Assembly: GCA_043808015.1 (NCBI GenBank)
Contig: JAZDFI010000008.1
Span: forward strand, 13,271-77,270
DNA length: 64,000 bases
From: Candidatus Aenigmatarchaeota archaeon
Lineage (GTDB): Archaea > Aenigmatarchaeota > Aenigmatarchaeia > QMZP01 > QMZT01
Direction: 5' to 3'
The translations under genes and the position numbers were made by a program. The notes beneath the pieces were generated by a model. The model was not told where the DNA came from. It saw only the letters and a list, made by a program, of their open reading frames with translations, and searched no databases. Position 1 is the first letter of the stretch, and each line of letters opens with the position of its first letter. This document shows positions 40,904 through 54,766 of the stretch, in pieces.

Positions 40904-41038
40904 TTGTTTTCGGCTTTGTCTTGGTTATAATGTGTAATAATTACATAGCATATAGATTATTAAAAATTACATTTTTCCCGTTTCCTTGGAAATGGAAGGA
41001 TAATATATATTTATGTAAAATTTCCATCTTAATTTTGT

Positions 41039-41383
41039 ATGACAGACAATGATTCATATTTGTTGTCGCTGAAACACTCCTTATGGAATGTCCTTGCCGG
41101 AACGAGGGGCGGCGTGACCAGAATATGCATACTGAAACTGCTCAGGAAGAGGCCCTACAACATAAATCAGCTCCATGAAAAACTAAAGCTGGATTACAAA
41201 ACAATTCAACATCACATAAGGGTTTTGACAAACAACAAAATAATCACGGTCGAGAACGAAAAAAAATACGGATCGATGTATTTCATCTCGCCATTTTTGG
41301 AGAAACATATGTATCTTTTTGATGAAATCTTGGGGAAAATTGGGAAAAGGGAGTTAAATAACAACGAAAATAGTATTGTATAA
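41039..41383 (+). CDS. Winged-helix (ArsR-like) transcriptional regulator
   Basis: ICILKLLRKRPYNINQLHEKLKLDYKTIQHHIRVL HTH segment; AT-rich gene. Confidence 0.6.
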   Translation: MTDNDSYLLSLKHSLWNVLAGTRGGVTRICILKLLRKRPYNINQLHEKLKLDYKTIQHHIRVLTNNKIITVENEKKYGSMYFISPFLEKHMYLFDEILGKIGKRELNNNENSIV

Positions 41384-41392
41384 AGTGATTGG

Positions 41393-41680
41393 ATGAACTA
41401 CGTGGCATTGTCGTCGCTGGTAATCGACATATTGAACATAGTAGTCGTTGGTATGCTTTTCTACGTTTATATCAAAAATTACAGGCTAATAAGGTCGAGA
41501 TATAATTTGGGTCTGGTGGTTTTTTCCCTGATTTTCCTTCTGCAAAACATAGTTATCACGCACTTGAGCTTTTTTGCGTGGCCGGCCAGCATCGGCGATG
41601 CGGTAATGCTTGACATAATAACAATAAACTTCATCGAGCTTGTCGGCATGGCGACTCTTCTTTACATAACTTGGAAGTAA
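41393..41680 (+). CDS. Small 3-TM membrane protein, unknown function; likely co-transcribed with the upstream regulator
   Basis: 95 aa, three hydrophobic helices; 9-nt spacing from the regulator gene. Confidence 0.45.
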   Translation: MNYVALSSLVIDILNIVVVGMLFYVYIKNYRLIRSRYNLGLVVFSLIFLLQNIVITHLSFFAWPASIGDAVMLDIITINFIELVGMATLLYITWK

Positions 41681-41784
41681 ACTGGAGTTTTGTGGGAATA
41701 AATTAGGAATACCGATATAAAGCGGTTTTGGCAAATAGAGTCTAGAAAAGCTATCAAGTAAAATCTTTTAAGAATAACATTAAA

Positions 41785-41865
41785 TCCACGGTCTGGTCAA
41801 AGAGGTGCGGCATTAGCCCCCCGTGATGCAGGGTTAAAATTCGCGCCCTGATCAGAAGGCCATGG
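41785..41865 (+). ncRNA. Copy 1 of an exactly duplicated 81-nt GC-rich structured element; candidate small RNA gene with upstream TATA-like box and downstream oligo-T
   Basis: Identical to 51988-52068; predicted coaxial helices CCACGG/CCAUGG, UCUGGUCA/UGAUCAGA and GGUGCG/CGCGCC; internal GUGAUGC...CUGA; followed by GGUUUUACC. Confidence 0.5.
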
Positions 41866-41920
41866 ATGGTTTTACCTGAGTACGGTTTTTAAAAACAACT
41901 AAAGAGGGAGGAGTGTATAC

Positions 41921-42277
41921 ATGAAAGTCGTAAAGAAGGATGGAAGAGAGGAAAATTTCGACCATAACAAAATCAAAATAGGCATTGAAAAAGCGGCAGA
42001 GAGGGTTGGTGTCGAAAAGGAAAGAGCTAGACTGATAGCAGAAAAATTGGCGAAGGATGTGGAAAACCATTTAAGAAGCACCGCTACTGAGAGCAATCTC
42101 ACAAGCGTGAAAAGCAGTGATATAAGACATAGGGTCATCGAGGCTCTCGAAAAAGAAGAAAAGACAATCGCCGATTCTTTGAGGGAGTACAAAAAAGAGC
42201 AGACCCACAAACAGAGCCAGGAGCAGATTCACCACACAGAAACAAGAGCAGATCCACAAACAGAAACAAAATGTTAG
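41921..42277 (+). CDS. Stand-alone ATP-cone domain protein
   Basis: MKVVKKDGREENFDHNKIKIGIEKA... matches the ATP-cone N-terminal consensus (M.VIKRDG..E.F...KI..AI.KA); GGAGG SD upstream. Confidence 0.6.
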   Translation: MKVVKKDGREENFDHNKIKIGIEKAAERVGVEKERARLIAEKLAKDVENHLRSTATESNLTSVKSSDIRHRVIEALEKEEKTIADSLREYKKEQTHKQSQEQIHHTETRADPQTETKC

Positions 42278-42541
42278 TGCTGATGACTCATGCCACAGCC
42301 TTTATTTATTTTTTTAACAATGGCACGTGAAGCAAAGCCGGACTGATGCGGAATGCTATCGAGAAAAATCAAAATATGAACTGTCAAACATGATGATCAT
42401 CCCATGGTCAAATTCTTTTGAACTGTATTTTACCACTTTAGTTGACTAAAAAACAAATTTATTGAAAAGCTATTTAAGAGGGCGCCGGGTTAACTTAAAA
42501 TATCCAGAACACTTCTTGTTTTGGCTATCGAGGGTTGTATC

Positions 42542-42976
42542 ATGGTAAAAACCACGGAAATAGTCGTCATCGATCTGATGAAACCGGCAAAGACTGTAAT
42601 GAAGGATATGGATATACACAAGGCACTCCACATGATGAGAACGGAGAACATCGATTTACTTTCCGTGGTTGACGACAAGCACACTCTGATAGGCGCGGTC
42701 AGCGAAGCGAACATGTTAAAACTGGTGAAGCAGGACCCGCCATCTCTGGGCGATCCGGTTTGGTACGACTCGCTTGAACATGACGCGGGCAATAAACCAA
42801 TAGAGACGATAATGACGAGAGGCATAACCACGATAGGCACGAATGACACGGCTGCCACCGCCCTCAAGGTCATGAGCGCGACCGGCTACAAACTTCTTCA
42901 CGTTGTCGGCCCGGCAGGAAGGCTGCTTGGCATCATAAGGATGAAGGATATAATCGATAAGCTGCTCGGTGCTTGA
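42542..42976 (+). CDS. CBS-pair domain protein
   Basis: Two CBS motifs (...HTLIGAVSEANMLK..., ...GRLLGIIRMKDII...); 4-nt overlap with the downstream antiporter. Confidence 0.8.
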   Translation: MVKTTEIVVIDLMKPAKTVMKDMDIHKALHMMRTENIDLLSVVDDKHTLIGAVSEANMLKLVKQDPPSLGDPVWYDSLEHDAGNKPIETIMTRGITTIGTNDTAATALKVMSATGYKLLHVVGPAGRLLGIIRMKDIIDKLLGA

Positions 42977-44141
42977 CATGGAACCTCTACTTGATTTGGC
43001 GTTGCTGCTCTTCGGGGCAAAGCTCGGCGGAATACTTTTCAGCAAGCTCAAGCAGCCCAGCGTGATAGGCGAGCTGGTGGCGGGCATTATACTCGGACCG
43101 TCGTTGCTGGCACTGGTCAATCCTTCAGACCTGGTCAAGGTCGTTTCTGATCTCGGCCTGCTGTTTATGATTTTGCTCGTAAGCCTCAGCATAGACTGGA
43201 AAATCCTCGAAGGACGCGCAGAACGCTTCAGCTGGATGGAACTTACGAGAGTCATACTTGTAATAATCGCGGTTTATGCGATAGGCACCGTACTGGGATG
43301 GAACATATACACCATGGTCGTGATGGGAACTGTGATAGCGATAGCTAGTACAGCGATAGTCGCGCGCACTCTCACCGACATGAAACTTTTCAGCACGGCT
43401 GAAGGACAAACGCTGATAGGACTGGAAGTCATTGACGAGGTCGTCGCCATAGTAAGCGTCGCGATAATAGCGAATGTCATGGGAGGCTCGGAGATAACGT
43501 TGTGGCCCATAATAACCACGATATTTCTCGTCGTGGGGTTGTTCGTCGTCATGAGCCGCGTTGGTTTCAAGTTCGTCACGAGGGTCACCAGCTCTATCCA
43601 GAAATACGGCATAGACGAGGCGTTGTTCGCTTTCACGTTGCTTTTCGCTTTCCTGCTTGGCAGCATCACTGAAGGCCTTAATCTGGCGTCCGTGCTTGGC
43701 GTATTCATCGCCGGCATGATACTCTGCAGAAGCGCGCAGCATCCGATAATAACGCGCAAGGTGAAGGAGATAGGCGAAAGCTTTTTCATACCGGTGTTTT
43801 TCGCGTCCGTCGGACTGTCAATAAACCTTTTTGCCGCATCCAGCCAGATAATCCCAATACTGATGATAATGGGCATCATCGTCGGAGTCAAGTTTGTCAC
43901 GGCCATGGCGGCTTTCAAGCTGTTCCGCTACAGCCTATCGGACGCGCTGAAGCTTTCGTCAGGCTTCGTCACGCTCTCCGAAATGACTGCGGTGATAGTC
44001 GCCGTCGCTATAGCGAAACTCGATCCGGTTTTCTACGTAGGGCTAATAGCGTCGTTCGTGCTGATTAATGCAGTATCGCCTCTCCTGATAAAATTCGCAT
44101 TCGGTCGCAGGGCAAGCGCAAACAGAAGGGGATGGAGTTAA
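42969..44141 (+). CDS. CPA2-family cation:proton antiporter (Kef/NapA-like), no RCK domain
   Basis: GELVAGIILGPSLL N-terminal motif; 12-13 TM helices. Confidence 0.8.
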   Translation: MLDMEPLLDLALLLFGAKLGGILFSKLKQPSVIGELVAGIILGPSLLALVNPSDLVKVVSDLGLLFMILLVSLSIDWKILEGRAERFSWMELTRVILVIIAVYAIGTVLGWNIYTMVVMGTVIAIASTAIVARTLTDMKLFSTAEGQTLIGLEVIDEVVAIVSVAIIANVMGGSEITLWPIITTIFLVVGLFVVMSRVGFKFVTRVTSSIQKYGIDEALFAFTLLFAFLLGSITEGLNLASVLGVFIAGMILCRSAQHPIITRKVKEIGESFFIPVFFASVGLSINLFAASSQIIPILMIMGIIVGVKFVTAMAAFKLFRYSLSDALKLSSGFVTLSEMTAVIVAVAIAKLDPVFYVGLIASFVLINAVSPLLIKFAFGRRASANRRGWS

Positions 44142-44160
44142 TTAAAATTTTTAATGATTT

Positions 44161-45639
44161 TCAGTAAGCTTTGGCGAAAAGCGCGGTCGCTTTCGCTGGT
44201 TTTCCGCAGATGGCGCATGCGCCTGCGTGAGCGTCACCTTCGATGCAGCGGATTGTCGCCGTCGTTTTCTCCTTCGTCTTCTCTTCGCATTCCGCGTAGC
44301 CGCACCAGTGGGCGCGGACCATCTTCTTGTTCTGTATGAGTTTTTCAAGTTCTTCGAAGTTTCTCGCGTCCTTTATGTTCGCTGTCAAAAACTCCTTGGC
44401 CTTCCTGAAAAGATTTTCCTGTATGTGATCGAGCGTAGTCGCTGCCGCGTGCTCTACGTCGCATTCTCTGACCGGTTTCTTCTCAGCCGTGTCGCGCCGC
44501 ACGAAGACGACCTGCCCGCTCTTTATGTCGCGGGGCCCGATTTCTATGCGAAGCGGCACGCCCTTCATCTCCCATTCGTTGAACTTCCAACCGGGAGAAT
44601 ATAAGTCGCGGTCGTCGAGCGTGACGCTGAATTTATGCTCCAGCGCCTTTCTGATCTTTTCGCCTTCTTTAAGCACGCTCGCTTTCGTGTCGTTGTCGTA
44701 AATAGGTATTATGACTATCTGGGTCGGGGCGATCTTCGGCGGAAGGACGAGGCCCTTGTCGTCGCCGTGCGTCATTGTAAGCGCGCCTATCGTGCGCGTC
44801 GTCAGGCCCCATGACGTCTGCCAGACCAGGCGTTCTTTTCCCTTGTCGTCCATGAACTTGATGTCGAACACTTTTGCGAAATGCTGGCCGAGCTTGTGCG
44901 ACGTCGCCATCTGCAGGCCGCGTCCGTCAGGCATCAGCGCCTCGAGCGCGATGGTGTAGTCCGCGCCTGCGAACGTTTCGCTCCTCGATTTCTTGCCCAT
45001 TAAGACGGGAATTGCGAGCTGGGTTTCTATTAGTTCTTTGTATTGACTCGCGCGGAGGGCGACTTCTTCTTCGCACTCCTTCTCGGTCGCGTGCGCGGTG
45101 TGGCCTTCCTGCCACAGGAATTCGCGTGTTCTCAGGAAAAGCCTGGTCGCCTTCACTTCCCAGCGGATTATGTTGCACCACTGGTTGATGCGAAGGGGAA
45201 GGTCACGCCAGGAGCGAATCCATTTCGCGTAAGAATCATACATTATAGTCTCGGATGTCGGGCGCAGCGCGTAGCGCTCTTCACCGTCGTCTTTCTTCTC
45301 AACCCAAGCGACTTCAGGCATGAAGCCTTCAAAATGCTCGGACTCCTTCTTCAGGAAGCGCTCGGGGATGAAGAGCGGGAAATACGCGTTCGATACGCCT
45401 GTCGCCTTTATCCTGTCGTCGAACCAGCGCTGTATCTTTTCCCATATGGCGAAGCCGTAAGGCCTTATGATCATGCAGCCGCTTATCGGAGCGTAATCCG
45501 CGAGGCCGGATTTCTGCACGAGCTGGTTATACCATTCGGAGAAATCGTCAGACTTCTTGATTTTCAGCCTGTCAGCTTCTTCTTTTGTGCCCTCTGGTTT
45601 CATGGCTTCGTGCTTTTGTCCGGCTTTTTTGTGCTCCAT
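44161..45639 (-). CDS. proS: Prolyl-tRNA synthetase, archaeal/eukaryotic type with C-terminal Zn domain
   Basis: Class II motifs; IRPYGFAIWE; C-terminal CIEGDAHAGACAICGKPA. Confidence 0.9.
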   Translation of the reverse strand: MEHKKAGQKHEAMKPEGTKEEADRLKIKKSDDFSEWYNQLVQKSGLADYAPISGCMIIRPYGFAIWEKIQRWFDDRIKATGVSNAYFPLFIPERFLKKESEHFEGFMPEVAWVEKKDDGEERYALRPTSETIMYDSYAKWIRSWRDLPLRINQWCNIIRWEVKATRLFLRTREFLWQEGHTAHATEKECEEEVALRASQYKELIETQLAIPVLMGKKSRSETFAGADYTIALEALMPDGRGLQMATSHKLGQHFAKVFDIKFMDDKGKERLVWQTSWGLTTRTIGALTMTHGDDKGLVLPPKIAPTQIVIIPIYDNDTKASVLKEGEKIRKALEHKFSVTLDDRDLYSPGWKFNEWEMKGVPLRIEIGPRDIKSGQVVFVRRDTAEKKPVRECDVEHAAATTLDHIQENLFRKAKEFLTANIKDARNFEELEKLIQNKKMVRAHWCGYAECEEKTKEKTTATIRCIEGDAHAGACAICGKPAKATALFAKAY

Positions 45640-45750
45640 ACATCCACCAATACGATGACAATTACTAAATTGTTAGCCTAAGTTATTAAATAATCATTCA
45701 CGTTTGGGTAAATTGAACTGCAAATCACTGAAAACAAAGCTGGCGGGACG

Positions 45751-46149
45751 TTAGCGCTCTTCTTCGTACGGCCTGTAATGGGTCAGCTGCCTGCCGATTA
45801 TGTATCTGATGTTCTTGGATACGATGTTGGTCGTTATCTTGCCGATTATCTTGCCGTCCCTGACGACTGCGAGTCTTCTTACCATTCTCTTGTCCATGAT
45901 TTCGCTCGCCTTTGATACGTCTTCGTTGGCGTCGATTGTTATGACTGGCGAGTTCATTATGCGTTTTACCGTGACGTAAGCCGGGTCCTTGCCCGCGGCC
46001 ACGACTTTTCTAAGAATGTCGCGTTCCGTCACCACTCCAAGCGGCGTTCCGTTCTCGGACACGAGAGCCGAGCCGGTGGCGTGCTTTTCAAGCGTCTTGG
46101 CAAGCTCGGTTACTGTGGTTTCAGGGCTCACTTTTACCCATTCCTTCAT
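45751..46149 (-). CDS. CBS-pair domain protein
   Basis: MKEWVKVSPETTV...; two CBS motifs; start at ATG 46149. Confidence 0.8.
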   Translation of the reverse strand: MKEWVKVSPETTVTELAKTLEKHATGSALVSENGTPLGVVTERDILRKVVAAGKDPAYVTVKRIMNSPVITIDANEDVSKASEIMDKRMVRRLAVVRDGKIIGKITTNIVSKNIRYIIGRQLTHYRPYEEER

Positions 46150-46375
46150 GACGTCTTTTACCTTCAAGGATGACACCAAAATATATTGGAACTGTAAATC
46201 TTTAAAAAGACCTCCCACATATAATATATGCTCATAGATGCCACAAACTCGGCGGCGCATAACCCTATGTGCCAATGCTGACAGGCATTTATGACGAAGA
46301 TGTGAGCTTAATTACATTCAGAAAATTAAGTTTGAAGTAGGAGAACGTGAGAAAAGCAGCGAGATTTACAAGGAG

Positions 46376-46385
46376 TTTAAATAAA
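46376..46385 (+). promoter_or_regulatory. TATA-box-like element (TTTAAATAAA) about 20 nt upstream of the mature 16S 5' end
   Basis: AT-rich box directly upstream of ATTCCGGCTGATCCTGCCGG; no evident long processing-stem complementarity in the flanks. Confidence 0.4.
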
Positions 46386-46400
46386 TCCCGCCAATTTTTA

Positions 46401-47993
<1,593 letters not shown>

Positions 47994-48083
47994 ATATATA
48001 TCTCGCGCTCTCAACGCGTCTCCTACTTCTTCACACAGTCTTCAGCGATTGGCGCATACTCGTATGCGTCTTTCGTCAGTATT

Positions 48084-48216
48084 GGGCCGATAGATCAGCG
48101 GTAATGCGCGGGCGCAAGCCTGCGGTCGCTTGAGATCGCTCGCTTTGCAAGCGAGAGGCCGTGGGTTCAAATACGCCTTCGGCACGCCGCAGGCGATGGG
48201 AATCCCACTCGGTCCA
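48084..48216 (+). tRNA. tRNA-Ala(UGC) in the 16S-23S spacer, carrying two non-canonical introns: D-loop (about 26-29 nt within 48105-48133) and T-loop (about 30 nt, about 48171-48201)
   Basis: Acceptor GGGCCGA/UCGGUCC with G3-U70 and A73; D-stem GAUC/GAUC; anticodon arm CUCGC-UUUGCAA-GCGAG; T-stem GUGGG...CCCAC split by an insert containing GCCUUCGGC; D-loop insert contains a GCAA-tetraloop hairpin. Confidence 0.75.
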
Positions 48217-48694
48217 TAAAAGCCTTTTAGAAAAAGGCTTTAGCGAAAAACGAAAGCGCGAACAATGTATATAAAGACCTGGCAACAATAATTAGTTGCT
48301 CACGCTTACGGAAAACGCAGGTGATGTCTGCGGTTTCCAAAACAATGGCTATCCAAAGCTGTTCAGAGCTGTGTCGTATCCGTGACAGGGAATGGCATTG
48401 CAGTCGGAGGGTGGCGTACGCGAGTACGATATCTGTTTTTCTGGACAAGCTAGGGCTAGCGACAACCAAATCTCAATGTCACGGATCATGCTAACCACAT
48501 TACACCGAACCGATTGCGGTTGATGCAAACCCGCTTTCGGCATATGAAGCCTTTCAGCGAACGCTGATGGGTGGATTAGAGAGGAGCGATGAATATCATA
48601 CAGTCACCTGAACGGACGCGCAAGCGCCTGTAATGACGAGGTGAACACCAATTGAGTTCCTTGATGATGAAACATTGGCGAGTTGTCCTGACAA

Positions 48695-51600
48695 AAAGGA
48701 TCTGCTACGTTGTGTGGTGGATGGTTTGGTTCGAGGGCCGAAGAAGGACGTGGCAAGCTGCGATATGCCGGGGGTAGACGCAAGCAGTCTTTGAACTCCG
48801 GATCTCTCAATGAGACTTCTTAACTTCGGTTGTTGGCCTTCGGGTCATCGGTGACGCCCTGAATTGAAACATCTTAGTAGGGGCAGGAAAAGAGAACAAT
48901 AGTTATTCCCTTAGTAGAGGCGATTGAAAAGGGAAGAGGACAAACCGAATCTTCTGGTGTAAGCCAGGAGAGATGTGGGGTTCGGACCTGTGCTCATCCT
49001 AACTTCTAAGTCCGAAGTGATCTGGAAAGATCCACGGCAAAGGGTGATAGTCCCGTAGGAGGACAGAAGAAGGTTGATAGCGGGTATCCAGAGTACCAAT
49101 GGTCGAAGATCCATTGGGAATACGGGAGCCAGTAACTCCTAATCCTAAATACACCTCGAGTCCGATAGCGCACAAGTACGGTGACGGAAAAATGAAAAGT
49201 ATCCTTAATCGGAGATTAAAAGAGCCTGAAACCATGCAACTATAGGTAGACATTGCTTCTGCTTTGCAGGAGTTTTGTCGCCCGTGCGGAAACACGCGTC
49301 AAGGAGTTTATTTTTGTGGCGAGGGTAATTCAAGTACCCATAGCGAAAGCGAGAACTGCGCAGCGGCTTCGTGCCGTCAGGCAGTCAGGTTTGAAAGAGC
49401 CTACAGTCACAAGGATAAGACCTGAAGCTAGTCGATCTAGCCCTTGGTAGGGTGAAGTCTGGCGAAAGCCAGATGGAGGCCCGGTAGAGATGCTGAGATT
49501 CAAATCGCTCACGTAACCTGGGGCTAGGAGTGAAATGCTAATCGAGATTAGCGATAGCTGGTTCCTCTCGAAATATGCCTCAGCATAGCCTGGTCGGAGA
49601 TGGATGGCGGGGTATAGATACTGATTGGGCAACCAAGGACCGAAAGGTCCAGTTGTCCTGTCAAACTCGGAATCTACCATCATCGCAGAAGACCGGAGTG
49701 GGAGCGCCGGGGTAAGCTCGGTGTTCGAAAGGGCGAGAACCCAGCCTAAAATTAAGGTCCCTAAATTCAAGCTAAGTGATAAAAAGCGTCTTCAACCTTA
49801 TACAATAGGGAAGTTGGCTCAGAAGCAGCCACCTTTTAAAGAGTGCGTAATAGCTCACCTATCTAGGTTGTGGGCCTTGAAAATGGACGGGACTAAGCTT
49901 GGTACCGATATTTTAGATTCCTAAAAGGAATATGGTAGAGAGGTGTCCTGCTAGGGCAGAAGTTCTCTCGTAAGAGGGAATGGACCTTGCAGGAATAAGA
50001 ATCTTGATGATAGTAGCAGCAATAGTGAAGTGAGACACTTCACCACCTAAAGGGCAAGGGTTCCTCAGCAACGTTCGTCGACTGAGGGTTAGTCGGTCCT
50101 AAGGCAAGCCCCAATTGGAACTTGCCGAAAGGGAAGCAGGTTAATATTCCTGCACCATGAGAATACGAGTGGCGACACAAGTTCATTTCCTGACGCTTCT
50201 GGATAAATCGATCATTTCGGTGATTAACCGGTTAAACCTGTGGAGTACCGTAATGGTGAGAAACAGGCCAAGCCGGCAATAGCTGACGTATGTCAGTTCG
50301 GTTGACTTCAGGAGCCCGTGAAAAGGGAAATGGAATGGATTTTTCATGTCCGTACCAAGAACCGTTACTGGTGCCCCTCGCTGAGAAGGCGAAGGTGTAA
50401 TAGGAAAATTCAGGTCAAGGAATTCGGCAAAATCGCCCTGTACCTTTGGTATAAGGGGTGCCTAATCTTCTGGCTCAGCCAGAACGATTAGGTCTCAGTA
50501 ACTAGTGGGTTGCGACTGTTTAACAAAAACGTAGGGGGCTGCTAGGTGGAAACGCTTTGTATAGCTCTTGAGGCCTGCCCAGTGCCGGTGTGTTAAACTG
50601 GCTAAAACCAGCCAAGCCCCGGTAAACGGCGGCGGTAACTCTGACCGTCTTAAGGTAGCGTAATCCCTTGTCGATTAATTGTCGACCTGCATGAATGGCT
50701 TAACGACATCCCAACTGTCTTGATCTGAAGCCTAGCGAACTTAGTTGTCCAGCGAATATCCTGGAGTCCTTCAGCGGGACGAGAAGACCCCATAGAGCTT
50801 TACTGCAGTCTGTTGTTGTAGTATGCTGATGGTCGCATAGCGTAAGTGGGAGCATCGCACTCAAGTCTTCGGGTTTGAGGAAGGCGTCAATGTAACACCA
50901 CTCCACCGTCAACATATTGCTTACCTTTAGGGGGACAGCAATTGATGGGCAGTTTGGCTGGGGCGGTACGCCTCTGATAAAGGATCAGAGGCGCCCTATG
51001 GTCGGCTCATTCCGGTCAGAAATCGGAAGCAGAGTGTAAGGGCAAAAGCCGGCCTGATAGGATTCTGCAAGGCAAAGAATCCTAACGCGAAAGCGTGGCC
51101 TAGCGATCCGCTGTGTCTCTATTAGCTGAGAGCCAGCTCTGTCAGAAAAGTTACCTTGGGGGTAATGGAGTCGTGGCGCGTGAGAGTCCATAACTCATTT
51201 CTCGTTCTCGATAAGTCTGAACAAAAAACGATACATACCTTGTGTATGTTAAAGCTTTTTGTCAGGACAAGCAGAAAGCAGAATATATAATCATCTGTTG
51301 GCTGTTGAGTCACACGTATCTATGCCCATTCATTGGGCTGCAAAGGTGCGTGTGATGATGAAAAATCGAGAAGTGAGAGGTCAAATCGACCGCGCTCGTT
51401 GCTTCTCCGCCGTCGGCTCGGCTCTTCCTGGACGTGCAGCAGCGTCCAAGGGTGGAGGTGTTCACTCATTAAAGAGTCACGCTAGCTGGGTTAAATACGG
51501 TGCGAGCCAGTATGGTCTATATCTGCTGAAGGTGTTGGTTACCTGAGGGTAGAATGCAATTAGTACGAAAGGAACACTGCGTTGTGGCCTCTGGTGTATC

Positions 51601-51825
51601 GGTTGTGTCTGCATTGCCGAGTAGCTACGCCGCTGAGGATAAAGGCTGAAAGCATCTAAGCCTGAAGCCTCTCCCGAAAATAGGTAACCGTTCATCAAAC
51701 TGATACGCAAGTATCGGCGCGATGAGGAAGGTCTCGTAGACGACGAGGTTGATGGAAGCGGGGTGTAAGTACCAAGCTTAGGCGAGGTATTCAGCCCACG
51801 TTACCCAATCACCTGACAGATCTTT
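48695..51825 (+). rRNA. rrl: 23S rRNA gene (archaeal), with an insertion of about 180-190 nt in the peptidyl-transferase-region sequence; boundaries approximate
   Basis: 5' region GGTGGATGG...GAAGGACGTG; sarcin-ricin-region AGTACGAAAGGAAC; helix-1 pairing GGAUCUG(48699-48705)/CAGAUCU(51817-51823); about 2945 nt excluding the insert. Confidence 0.85.
51195..51385 (+). other. Candidate 23S rRNA intron/insertion splitting the conserved ...AAGAGUUCAUAUCGAC... (E. coli about 2470-2480) segment; flanked by an imperfect 15-nt duplication of the target (GUGAGAGUCCAUAAC / GUGAGAGGUCAAAUC)
   Basis: Upstream exon matches archaeal consensus up to ...AGUCCAUAAC, and consensus resumes at ...GGUCAAAUCGACCGCGCUCG; no endonuclease ORF inside. 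Confidence 0.5.
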
Positions 51826-51987
51826 GTCAAAAGGACAACTCGCCAATTATGTTTCCTCTATTTTTATTAATGGAGAACTGCATAGCGTCAGCTATCGCTG
51901 GCGTTACTTGATTTTGAGTCGGTAAAACCGGCAACCAGCGGACGCCAGAGTAACATATAAAAAACTTTGTGAACCAATAATAATTGG

Positions 51988-52068
51988 TCCACGGTCTGGT
52001 CAAAGAGGTGCGGCATTAGCCCCCCGTGATGCAGGGTTAAAATTCGCGCCCTGATCAGAAGGCCATGG
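51988..52068 (+). ncRNA. Copy 2 of the 81-nt structured element; preceded by ATATAAAAAA (about 51957-51966) and followed by a T-rich tract
   Basis: 81/81 identity with 41785-41865; lies between the 23S 3' end and the RNase P RNA promoter. Confidence 0.5.
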
Positions 52069-52127
52069 GCTTTGTTTCTAGCGCTTCGCTTAAATCAACC
52101 TTTTTAAAGCGAAAAACGAAGGAATCT

Positions 52128-52470
52128 TGTTGAGCCGGGTGGATAGCTCGCCTTGCGCAAGCAGGGAGGTAAGTTCCATACACTCAAGCCAGCACCCAAA
52201 CGTGCTGGTAAAGCACGCTGATGAAAATCAGGGTTCGAGAGAGCCTGTCCGATCGCAGAAACCACCTTCGCTTCGGAGCCATGACTCCGCAAGGGAGAGC
52301 GACGAAGGAGCGCAAGGGTGAAATTGAACCGGGCCGTGCGGGTGAAAGCGTAGGGCAAGCATGCAGGTTTCCTGTGTGAACCCGATCGCGAGTCAGAAAA
52401 ATGCTATCGCCACGTTCGCGCTTCAAAGCGCGCGTGATGACAGAAAATGGGCTATGCCCGGCACAACACC
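52128..52470 (+). ncRNA. rnpB: RNase P RNA (archaeal type A-like)
   Basis: CR-I-like AGGGAGGUAAGUUCCAUAC; CR-II/III-like AAGGGUGAAAUUG...GGGUGAAAGCG; CR-V-like GAUGACAGAAAAUGGGCUAUGCC; P1 pairing UGUUGAGCCGGG/CCCGGCACAACA; TTTTTAAAG box about 20 nt upstream; overlapping ORFs in the track are judged spurious. Confidence 0.65.
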
Positions 52471-54657: not shown

Positions 54658-54766
54658 GGGCCTGTAGCTCAATCGGCAGAGCACCAGACTCTTAGATGTT
54701 ATGAGGCGCTTGCGCCCGTGACTGCGTGATATCTGGGGGTCGCGGGTTCGATTCCCGCCGGGCTCA
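54658..54766 (+). tRNA. tRNA-Lys(CUU) with a 36-nt canonical 37/38 intron (54695-54730)
   Basis: Acceptor GGGCCUG/CGGGCUC; D-arm GCUC-AAUCGGCA-GAGC; anticodon stem CCAGA/UCUGG; loop CUCUUA|A; T-arm GCGGG-UUCGAUU-CCCGC; A73. Confidence 0.8.

Follow-up and report, generated by a model that had tools for sequence, protein, structure and literature searches.

Excision by way of the motif called bulge-helix-bulge (BHB) is known for tRNA introns, for the 16S and 23S rRNAs, for a few mRNAs, and for permuted signal recognition particle (SRP) RNA or tRNA genes. By definition it consists of a 4-bp helix with a 3-nt bulge at each end, and the products of excision become circular (PMC7714728). A BHB has also been described around a non-coding RNA gene that stands alone, the permuted SRP RNA gene of Thermoproteus (PMC4731332). 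In this study, we analysed a stretch of 64,000 nucleotides from a Candidatus Aenigmatarchaeota archaeon (assembly GCA_043808015.1, contig JAZDFI010000008.1, positions 13,271 to 77,270), hereafter called the window, which carries two identical copies of an 81-nt element that we refer to as X. As judged from sequence comparison, X is a previously undescribed RNA family specific to one Aenigmarchaeota clade of the DPANN archaea. The observations that we build on are the repeat itself, its conservation, its covariation, the order of the genes around it and its BHB geometry. Overall, we read X as a gene in its own right whose product is a small, stable and structured RNA, which has a BHB-type processing stem and acts in trans; taken as a whole, we give this reading about an even chance of being correct. 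A sequence-only reading of the same DNA had proposed a novel, independently transcribed small structured RNA gene in two copies. That proposal finds support in the lack of any Rfam match, in the occurrence of X in 11 lineages and in covariation. Neither the BHB layout nor the link to the position of the 5S rRNA gene was part of it.

Conservation and fold of element X

The 81-mer (TCCACGG...GGCCATGG) has two exact occurrences in the window, at 41785-41865 (copy 1) and 51988-52068 (copy 2), with 0 mismatches between them and with flanking sequences that are unrelated to each other, just as the sequence-only reading had reported. Both copies, their structural parts and the signals around them lie on the + strand. 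Allowing up to 3 mismatches did not bring up a third copy in the window, where none is expected by chance, and a covariance-model search of the window recovered the same two copies only (copy 1 scoring 77.3 bits, E 5e-16, with model R1). The neighbourhoods assigned earlier to the two copies also proved right. Copy 2 lies 159 nt downstream of the 23S rRNA (48693-51828) and 61 nt upstream of the RNase P RNA gene (52130-52466, + strand; 56 bits, E 8e-15, under the Rfam gathering score), a conserved neighbour from which X is separated by an EamA gene in relatives. This is the ancestral position of X, which belongs to a cluster of stable-RNA genes comprising 16S rRNA, 23S rRNA, X and RNase P RNA. 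Copy 1 lies 55 nt upstream of a stand-alone ATP-cone open reading frame (ORF; 118 aa, 41921-42277, Pfam PF03477), inside a segment of about 1.5 kb (approximately 40976-42465) that also contains an ArsR-like ORF and a 95-aa ORF (orf95). This segment is absent from the closest relative, L001, and the context of copy 1 was found in none of the recovered contigs of close relatives. Hence, copy 1 looks like a recent duplicate. In L001, the place of the segment is taken by about 30 nt between an amino-acid permease gene and CBS / Na+/H+ exchanger genes.

L001 is a Candidatus Aenigmarchaeota metagenome-assembled genome (MAG) with a 1.1-Mb contig, whose ProRS is 85% identical to that of the window. 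Its X is about 77% identical to the window X and begins about 180 nt after its 23S rRNA. The spacer between 23S rRNA and X is unalignable between the two, whereas X aligns. A pattern scan of metagenomes gave 17 matches, of which five were further close copies of X, all located after 23S rRNA; the other 12 were chance matches in GC-rich coding sequence. In L001, L087 and L089, a gene for an EamA/DMT transporter begins about 50 nt downstream of X, and EamA homologues served as anchors for locating diverged X in further lineages. In contigs anchored in this way, down to 49% EamA identity, a diverged X was found just upstream of the gene in L098-L109 and L128. L110 is an exception, having EamA and no X, and the gene context of a distant EamA homologue (P0023) was unrelated.

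Altogether, homologues of 81-88 nt were identified in 11 related lineages. They were located in L001, L084, L087, L089, L095 and L097-L109, in all of which X holds the position orthologous to copy 2, and in L128, where it is cut off at the contig end. The L128 contig starts inside X at the P2 hairpin described below (L128:1-66), perhaps because the assembly broke off at an element that is repeated or unevenly covered. In every lineage with upstream sequence available, X lies downstream of 23S rRNA. An Rfam scan of 11 loci revealed a conserved order of 23S rRNA, sometimes a PqqD-like gene on the opposite strand, X, EamA and RNase P RNA. The PqqD-like gene (Pfam PF05402) is found in clade B (L102:1029-1259; L104:238-465; L107:1812-2018; L109:701-1066). 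As for the RNase P RNA of this clade (52130-52466; L087, L089, L098-L109), it always lies a short distance downstream of X and EamA, and mostly scores under the gathering score (36-100 bits versus 84). When the covariance model of X was run against 818 kb of other DPANN and archaeal loci, nothing else was found.

The structural alignment comprised 13 sequences, 12 of them distinct, from 4-5 clades. Its RNAalifold consensus is a three-way junction, formed by a terminal stem (P1/P1b) and two hairpins (P2 and P3). In P1, the 5' strand CCACGGUCU (51989-51997) pairs with AGGCCAUGG (52060-52068) over 9 bp including one C.A mismatch (copy 1: 41786-41794 with 41857-41865); 92% of the cells are paired and pair 7:86 changes from GC to AU. 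P1b joins GGUC (51998-52001) to GAUC (52053-52056; copy 1: 41795-41798 with 41850-41853). It has exactly 4 bp in 13/13 sequences, with 100% of cells paired, and its pair 13:77 is UA in seven sequences and CG in six. The P2 hairpin (52007-52023; copy 1: 41804-41820) consists of GG, a 3-nt bulge, GGC, the loop AUUA, GCC and CC. In relatives it reads GGCU-NNNN-AGCC, with a variable loop sequence and compensatory pairs at 26:33 (CG/GC) and 27:32 (UA/CG). The P3 hairpin (52027-52057; copy 1: 41824-41854) has the core stem AGGGU/GCCCU (52033-52037 with 52048-52052), the consensus being AGGGU/ACCCU, and an apical part of 10 to 20 nt depending on the lineage. Pair 50:72 within it is GC in nine sequences and AU in four.

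On the model-based alignment, 93.6% of the cells in P1, P1b, P2 and P3 are paired. Both partners are changed in five pairs (7:86, 13:77, 26:33, 27:32 and 50:72; 18 cells), the covariation score was reached by 0 of 500 shuffles, and slid controls were 24-56% paired. These pair counts lean towards the three-way junction because the alignment was fitted to it. The folding energy is unremarkable, with a modest z-score of about -2.2 on both strands; the structural evidence comes from the comparison with relatives. It was in relatives that the sequence-only reading had sought its own confirmation, and the 11 lineages and the five compensated pairs provide the conservation and covariation that it had called for. 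In sequence, X is most conserved in its terminal stem and most variable in its loops and junctions. The combination of conserved helices and variable loops argues for a structural RNA in complex with protein rather than for a ligand sensor or guide RNA, and X is probably an RNA of this kind.

The fold drawn from a single sequence did not survive this comparison. The earlier rod model had included a third helix (GGUGCG/CGCGCC), for which 67-72% of the cells are paired; three of its pairs cannot form in 6-10 of the 13 sequences. The register of the outer stem in that model also performs worse than the consensus, and pair 9:81 of the model is broken in 9/13. With both elements so poorly kept, the rod model was abandoned. 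The K-turn-like arrangement that had been seen in GUGAUGC...CUGA is likewise confined to the window's clade: GUGAUGC reads AAGCAUC, AAGAUUC or AAACAUC elsewhere, and CUGA reads CUGG in clade B. The lack of conservation of these motifs rules against a K-turn or C/D-box small RNA (sRNA), and no tandem G.A pairs were seen beside 3-nt bulges.

Several known RNA classes were considered and rejected. Rfam returned no match to X and its flanks (a 301-nt stretch) at the gathering score or even at E<=10, and ARAGORN called no tRNA on X. The scan thus assigns X to no known family. A tRNA, including an intron-containing or permuted one, was discarded because neither ARAGORN nor the Rfam tRNA model (E<=10) found a match. 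The remaining checks, on the K-turn, cloverleaf, SRP RNA, H/ACA sRNA and hammerhead, were made by inspection of the alignments. The trial D-arm pairing of a cloverleaf clashes with the covariation-supported P1b and P2. There are no GNRA or GNAR tetraloops as in SRP RNA, and AGCA is not conserved. Neither an ACA box nor a modification pocket of an H/ACA sRNA was seen. As a hammerhead ribozyme, X would have a C at the essential G8 in CUGAUCA, and junctions of the wrong lengths. Regarding a role as antisense to the pre-rRNA, RNAduplex energies were no better than those of shuffled X. In the literature, we found no description of an X-like RNA, or of a missing 5S rRNA, in Aenigmarchaeota.

The bulge-helix-bulge layout and its competing fold

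The processing stem of the neighbouring 23S rRNA offers a reference for the layout of X. Its 5' arm (48674-48704, + strand) pairs with 51817-51847, and the two arms read GUUGUCC-UGAC-AAA-AAGGAUCUG and CAGAUCUUU-GUCA-AAA-GGACAAC. Written as a duplex (5'-GUUGUCC UGAC AAA AAGGAUCUG / 3'-CAACAGG AAA ACUG UUUCUAGAC), this is a textbook BHB of the canonical 3-4-3 type, matching the published definition and conserved in all relatives. The base of X reads 5'-CCACGGUCU GGUC AAA GAGG / 3'-GGUACCGGA AGA CUAG UCCC, and that of clade B reads GGCC GAA AGG / CCCU GGUC AAA AGGCC. X and the 23S stem share the same layout, the same handedness and A-rich bulges. In X, the 4-bp helix is P1b. The inner bulge is formed by three unpaired nucleotides, AAA, on the 5' strand (52002-52004; copy 1: 41799-41801). 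The outer bulge, AGA in the window and AAA in most relatives, lies on the 3' strand (52057-52059; copy 1: 41854-41856) and has 3 nt in 13/13 sequences. X thus has a 4-bp helix with two 3-nt bulges on opposite strands, as in the published definition, and its 3-4-3 part shows no insertions or deletions in 13/13 sequences. The outer helix of 9 bp is well supported. The inner helix has 3-4 bp, the first three of which are kept in 13/13, 10/13 and 13/13 sequences, and it competes with P3 and with an extension of P2.

We propose that processing would follow from this layout. X would be transcribed from its own promoter of the B recognition element (BRE)/TATA type, downstream of the oligo-T tract of the rRNA operon, and transcription would stop at its own oligo-T tract. 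Pairing of the two ends of the RNA would then form a 9-bp stem that leads, by way of a 3-nt bulge in the 3' strand, to a 4-bp helix, three unpaired nucleotides on the 5' side and a short inner helix, which is the BHB layout recognised by the archaeal splicing endonuclease EndA. Cleavage by EndA in both bulges would free a two-hairpin core of 55-61 nt, possibly circularised. The freed CCCU-GAUC strand would re-pair with an internal look-alike, UGAU-N-CAGGG, to yield a dumbbell of P2 and P3. The RNA would act in trans, probably as a protein-bound structural RNA tied to the translation or RNA-processing machinery.

In the window, the predicted core comprises about 55 nt (52004-52058; copy 1: 41801-41855), the cuts being approximate, and a notional cut in both bulges gives 55-61 nt across lineages. 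Of the 12 distinct cores, 10 fold as a two-hairpin dumbbell, with J2/3 as the new partner of the freed GAUC/GGUC strand; as folds of the excised core show, freeing the GAUC strand allows the P3 stem to extend through UGAU/AUCA. The minimum-energy fold stays a rod for the cores of the window and L084. L098 and L101 have U in place of C at column 72, and in these lineages A has replaced G at each of the two columns with which it can pair, namely column 21 (inner helix) and column 50 (P3). The matching of one change in two alternative partners suggests that two conformations of X are both in use.

A rival to cleavage is a reading in which X works as a full-length three-way-junction RNA and is left uncut, its 3-4-3 base being a protein-binding or architectural look-alike of a BHB. 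We regard this as rather unlikely. It can draw on the three-way junction being the best-supported consensus fold, and on the terminal stem being the most conserved part of the sequence, which would be unexpected for a stem that is discarded. Stability also speaks for it. For 7/12 distinct sequences (all of clade B except L106, and L098, L101 and L089), the predicted stability of the three-way junction exceeds that of the BHB form. The gap is 2-6 kcal/mol in six of them, and the 0.4 kcal/mol of L089 is effectively a tie. Only L001, L087 and L106 have the BHB form as their minimum-energy fold. In addition, BHB-like layouts are frequent by chance at low stringency: a relaxed descriptor of 5+4+3 bp gave 58 matches in the window versus about 35 in shuffles, and it missed the X of the window. 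Since relaxed layouts are so common, our argument rests on the conserved geometry and the likeness to 23S rRNA, and not on rarity. Against an uncut junction stands the exact conservation of bulge lengths, helix length and handedness. So do a sequence close to that of the 23S stem (CUGAC-AAA-AAGG / GUCA-AAA-GGAC versus CUGGCC-GAA-AGG / GGUC-AAA-AGGCC), the covariation of the inner helix at 21:72, and an internal look-alike segment that is able to take over the freed strand.

Besides the stability of the junction and the chance matches of the relaxed descriptor, other points weigh against our reading of X as a BHB-processed RNA acting in trans. In the window's clade, the second pair of the inner helix is an A.C mismatch, and there is little variation in the P3 stem proper. 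The alignment is a limited sample. The lineages differ in their junctions and loops, so that a functional site cannot be pointed out. For copy 1, the promoter is doubtful and poorly placed, as detailed below. Finally, we infer the promoter, the terminator, the cleavage and the circularisation of X from its sequence and layout.

Element X and the place of 5S rRNA

The position of X raises a further question. In Nanobdellota, a neighbouring DPANN phylum, a 16S-23S-5S operon is present in 203/208 complete genomes (bioRxiv 10.64898/2026.05.13.725050), and X occupies the place that 5S rRNA has in those operons. No canonical 5S rRNA was found in the 64-kb window (E<=1), in L001 (Rfam gathering score) or in the 11 related loci (E<=0.01). 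One interpretation, of low probability in our view, is that X is a drastically reduced 5S rRNA of this clade. Either the whole junction or the excised two-hairpin core would then be the small RNA of the central protuberance of the large subunit, and these genomes would have no canonical 5S gene; this would be compatible with BHB processing. Taken furthest, the clade would lack a canonical 5S, and X, at 55-88 nt, matured through a BHB like 16S and 23S rRNA and possibly circular, would be the third RNA of its ribosome, to which we give the same low probability.

Several features are shared by X and 5S rRNA (RF00001). Both follow 23S rRNA and combine a terminal helix with two arms, a general shape that in X comes from RNAalifold and covariation and in which the arms are much shorter than in 5S. 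X also appears to have a strong promoter of the stable-RNA type, and it is present in two identical copies, as is common for 5S genes. Reduced forms of 5S have precedents in organelles: that of Polytomella lacks domain alpha and has a truncated beta domain (PMC9576764), and other organelle 5S rRNAs are divergent or permuted (PMC4267664).

Other features set the two apart. The RF00001 covariance model has no match on the 301-nt stretch even at E<=10, and the loop C and loop E motifs are absent from X. X measures 81-88 nt, and its core 55-61 nt, versus about 120 nt for 5S, so that it has at most two-thirds of the length. Its loops and junctions are its most variable parts, the reverse of what 5S shows. 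No BHB-type stem is known for 5S, and archaeal 5S rRNA has no known processing through this motif (PMC12918454). In other Aenigmarchaeota a normal 5S is present, being detectable in 6/8 MAGs (PMC8407114). Moreover, the search covered about 6% of a genome of about 1.1 Mb, and a canonical 5S gene could lie elsewhere. A likeness of X to helix I/loop A of 5S (GGUCAAAGAGGUG versus GGCCAUAGCGGUG) was dismissed, as it is gone in other clades.

The consequences would differ between these readings. At the usual DPANN place of 5S, X would be either a new product of the BHB pathway or a first glimpse of a miniaturised 5S-type RNA in a cellular ribosome. If X did substitute for 5S, it would be the first case of a radically reduced 5S-type RNA in a free-living organism, with a bearing on the extent to which the ribosome's central protuberance can shrink outside organelles. 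A practical side exists as well. Since genome-quality standards demand a 5S gene, lineages whose substitute is unrecognisable would systematically be rated as incomplete.

Putative transcription signals, further readings and known counterparts

Copy 2 is preceded by a TATA-like box, ATATAAAAAA (51955-51964), which ends 23 nt before X, is conserved in relatives and probably acts as a promoter. A spacing of 23 nt is compatible with an archaeal TATA box. In relatives, the box upstream of X is TTTAAAAA(A) or TATAAAAAA, ending 23-35 nt before X and preceded by GGAAATG. The block GGAAATGYTTAAAAA is conserved upstream of X, and ATATAAAAAA is its counterpart in the window's clade. The box also resembles the one upstream of 16S rRNA (AAATCTTTAAAAAG, approximately 46196-46209). 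The sequence-only reading had placed such a box 20-30 nt upstream of both copies. This holds for copy 2. The box assigned to copy 1, TTTTAAGAATAA at 41766-41777, ends just 7 nt before X, too close for a TATA box, which makes a promoter of copy 1 doubtful. Ahead of the putative X promoter, some 55 nt (TGTATATTTCCAAAAATCTATTT-N6-ACGGAAATGYTTAAAAA) are conserved as a block across lineages and missing from the window's clade (L001:4150-4215 on the - strand; L102:1380-1434; L104:590-641; L105:1365-1416).

As regards the 3' side, short T runs follow both copies, in line with the oligo-T tracts described earlier. Copy 2 is followed by GCTTTGTTTCT (52069-52079, with TTT/TTT at 52071-52077), a putative archaeal terminator. 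The tracts after copy 1 (41866-41890), also candidate terminators, comprise T4 at 41870-41873 and T5 at 41886-41890, the latter belonging to TTTTTAAAAA, likely the TATA box of the ATP-cone gene. In relatives, the tract is TGCTTGTTTTT(T), with T5-T7, and overlaps the TATA-like box of the next gene. Another oligo-T tract lies directly 3' of the 23S processing stem in every lineage, and the rRNA operon thus probably ends upstream of X.

These signals bear on whether X could be a cis-acting leader, of EamA in most lineages and of the ATP-cone gene for copy 1, working as a riboswitch-like sensor or as a BHB intron of a 5' untranslated region (UTR). The arrangement invites this idea: X lies 45-60 nt upstream of the EamA/DMT gene and on the same strand in 10/11 EamA-bearing lineages, copy 1 precedes the ATP-cone gene, and a 46-nt BHB intron is known from the 5' UTR of Haloferax HVO_1309 (PMC7714728). 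We nevertheless consider it very unlikely. An oligo-T tract of 5-7 T separates X from EamA, and the genes downstream of X carry TATA-like boxes of their own. That of EamA, TTTTTTAA, ends about 23 nt before the ATG and is present too in L110, which has EamA and no X; the implication is that EamA has a promoter of its own and an mRNA without a leader. In the window's clade, EamA has been lost and X is kept, being 99-100% identical among the strains, against 83-88% for the adjoining spacers, and in the window copy 2 is followed by an RNA gene with its own TATA box. The junction nucleotides vary, unlike those of ligand-binding aptamers. A riboswitch or leader would be part of the downstream transcript and would decay when the gene is lost, and X appears to do neither. 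The possibility that X is only the 5' leader of its neighbours, which the sequence-only reading had named as fatal to its proposal, is therefore countered by these strains. Lastly, a repeated DNA element (a miniature transposable element or an integration site, with two copies due to mobility) would fit the identical copies, the sharp borders, the imperfectly palindromic ends and the location of copy 1 in a 1.5-kb insertion absent from L001, and is extremely improbable given an orthologous position with compensatory changes across lineages to about 50% EamA identity, no target-site duplications at either copy, one copy per relative recovered, and no real copy in two scans of viral contigs, by which a viral or mobile origin was rejected.

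Some observations concern the neighbouring rRNA and tRNA genes. The Rfam match to 16S rRNA ends at 47839, and the true 3' end (GGATCACCTCC) lies at about 47982-47992 (region 47817-47992). Between AAGTCGTAA and ACAAGGTAACCG there are about 125 nt closed by an 11-bp inverted repeat (GTGACGAGATG/CATCTCGTCAC), probably an intron or insertion near the 3' end. An intron-containing tRNA gene (48086-48184; 25 bits, below threshold) lies in the 16S-23S spacer, and the one at 54658-54766 is likely a tRNA-Lys(CUU), its intron measuring about 36 nt; ARAGORN missed both. The 23S rRNA of L101 contains a group I intron (L101:4277-4478, 44.8 bits). L107 (1-1667) and L109 (1-564) have about 550 nt of extra sequence in the 3' domains of 23S rRNA, insertions that confound the cross-clade comparison of 23S 3' ends.

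Compared with known systems, X is similar in size to archaeal C/D-box sRNAs, and its window copy has GUGAUGC and CUGA. It differs from them in having neither C' nor D' boxes, nor a terminal stem beside the boxes, and in losing the motifs in other clades. The BHB introns of the HVO_1309 5' UTR and of crenarchaeal cbf5 (PMC7714728) are, like X, BHB-flanked segments of about 50 nt upstream of a protein gene. Unlike them, X has a putative terminator and promoter between itself and the next gene, and it persists without that gene. A parallel in layout is found in the permuted SRP RNA gene of Thermoproteus (PMC4731332) and in permuted tRNA genes (PMC3218864), which are stand-alone, have a BHB at their termini and are processed by EndA and circularisation. 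X is without SRP or tRNA motifs, and since neither half of it has a local match in Rfam, there is no sign that circularisation would rebuild a known RNA.

The BHB processing stems of archaeal 16S and 23S rRNA, which are cut by EndA and circularised, likewise share with X a stem formed by the flanks, the 3-4-3 geometry, the handedness, the A-rich bulges and the rRNA locus. X encloses 55-61 nt instead of 1.5-3 kb, and appears to have its own promoter beyond the oligo-T tract of the operon. Its inner helix is short (3-4 bp) and competes with a hairpin of the core, and its processing is predicted. If our reading is correct, X would add a stand-alone small RNA family to the RNAs that are matured through the same motif as the rRNAs beside it.

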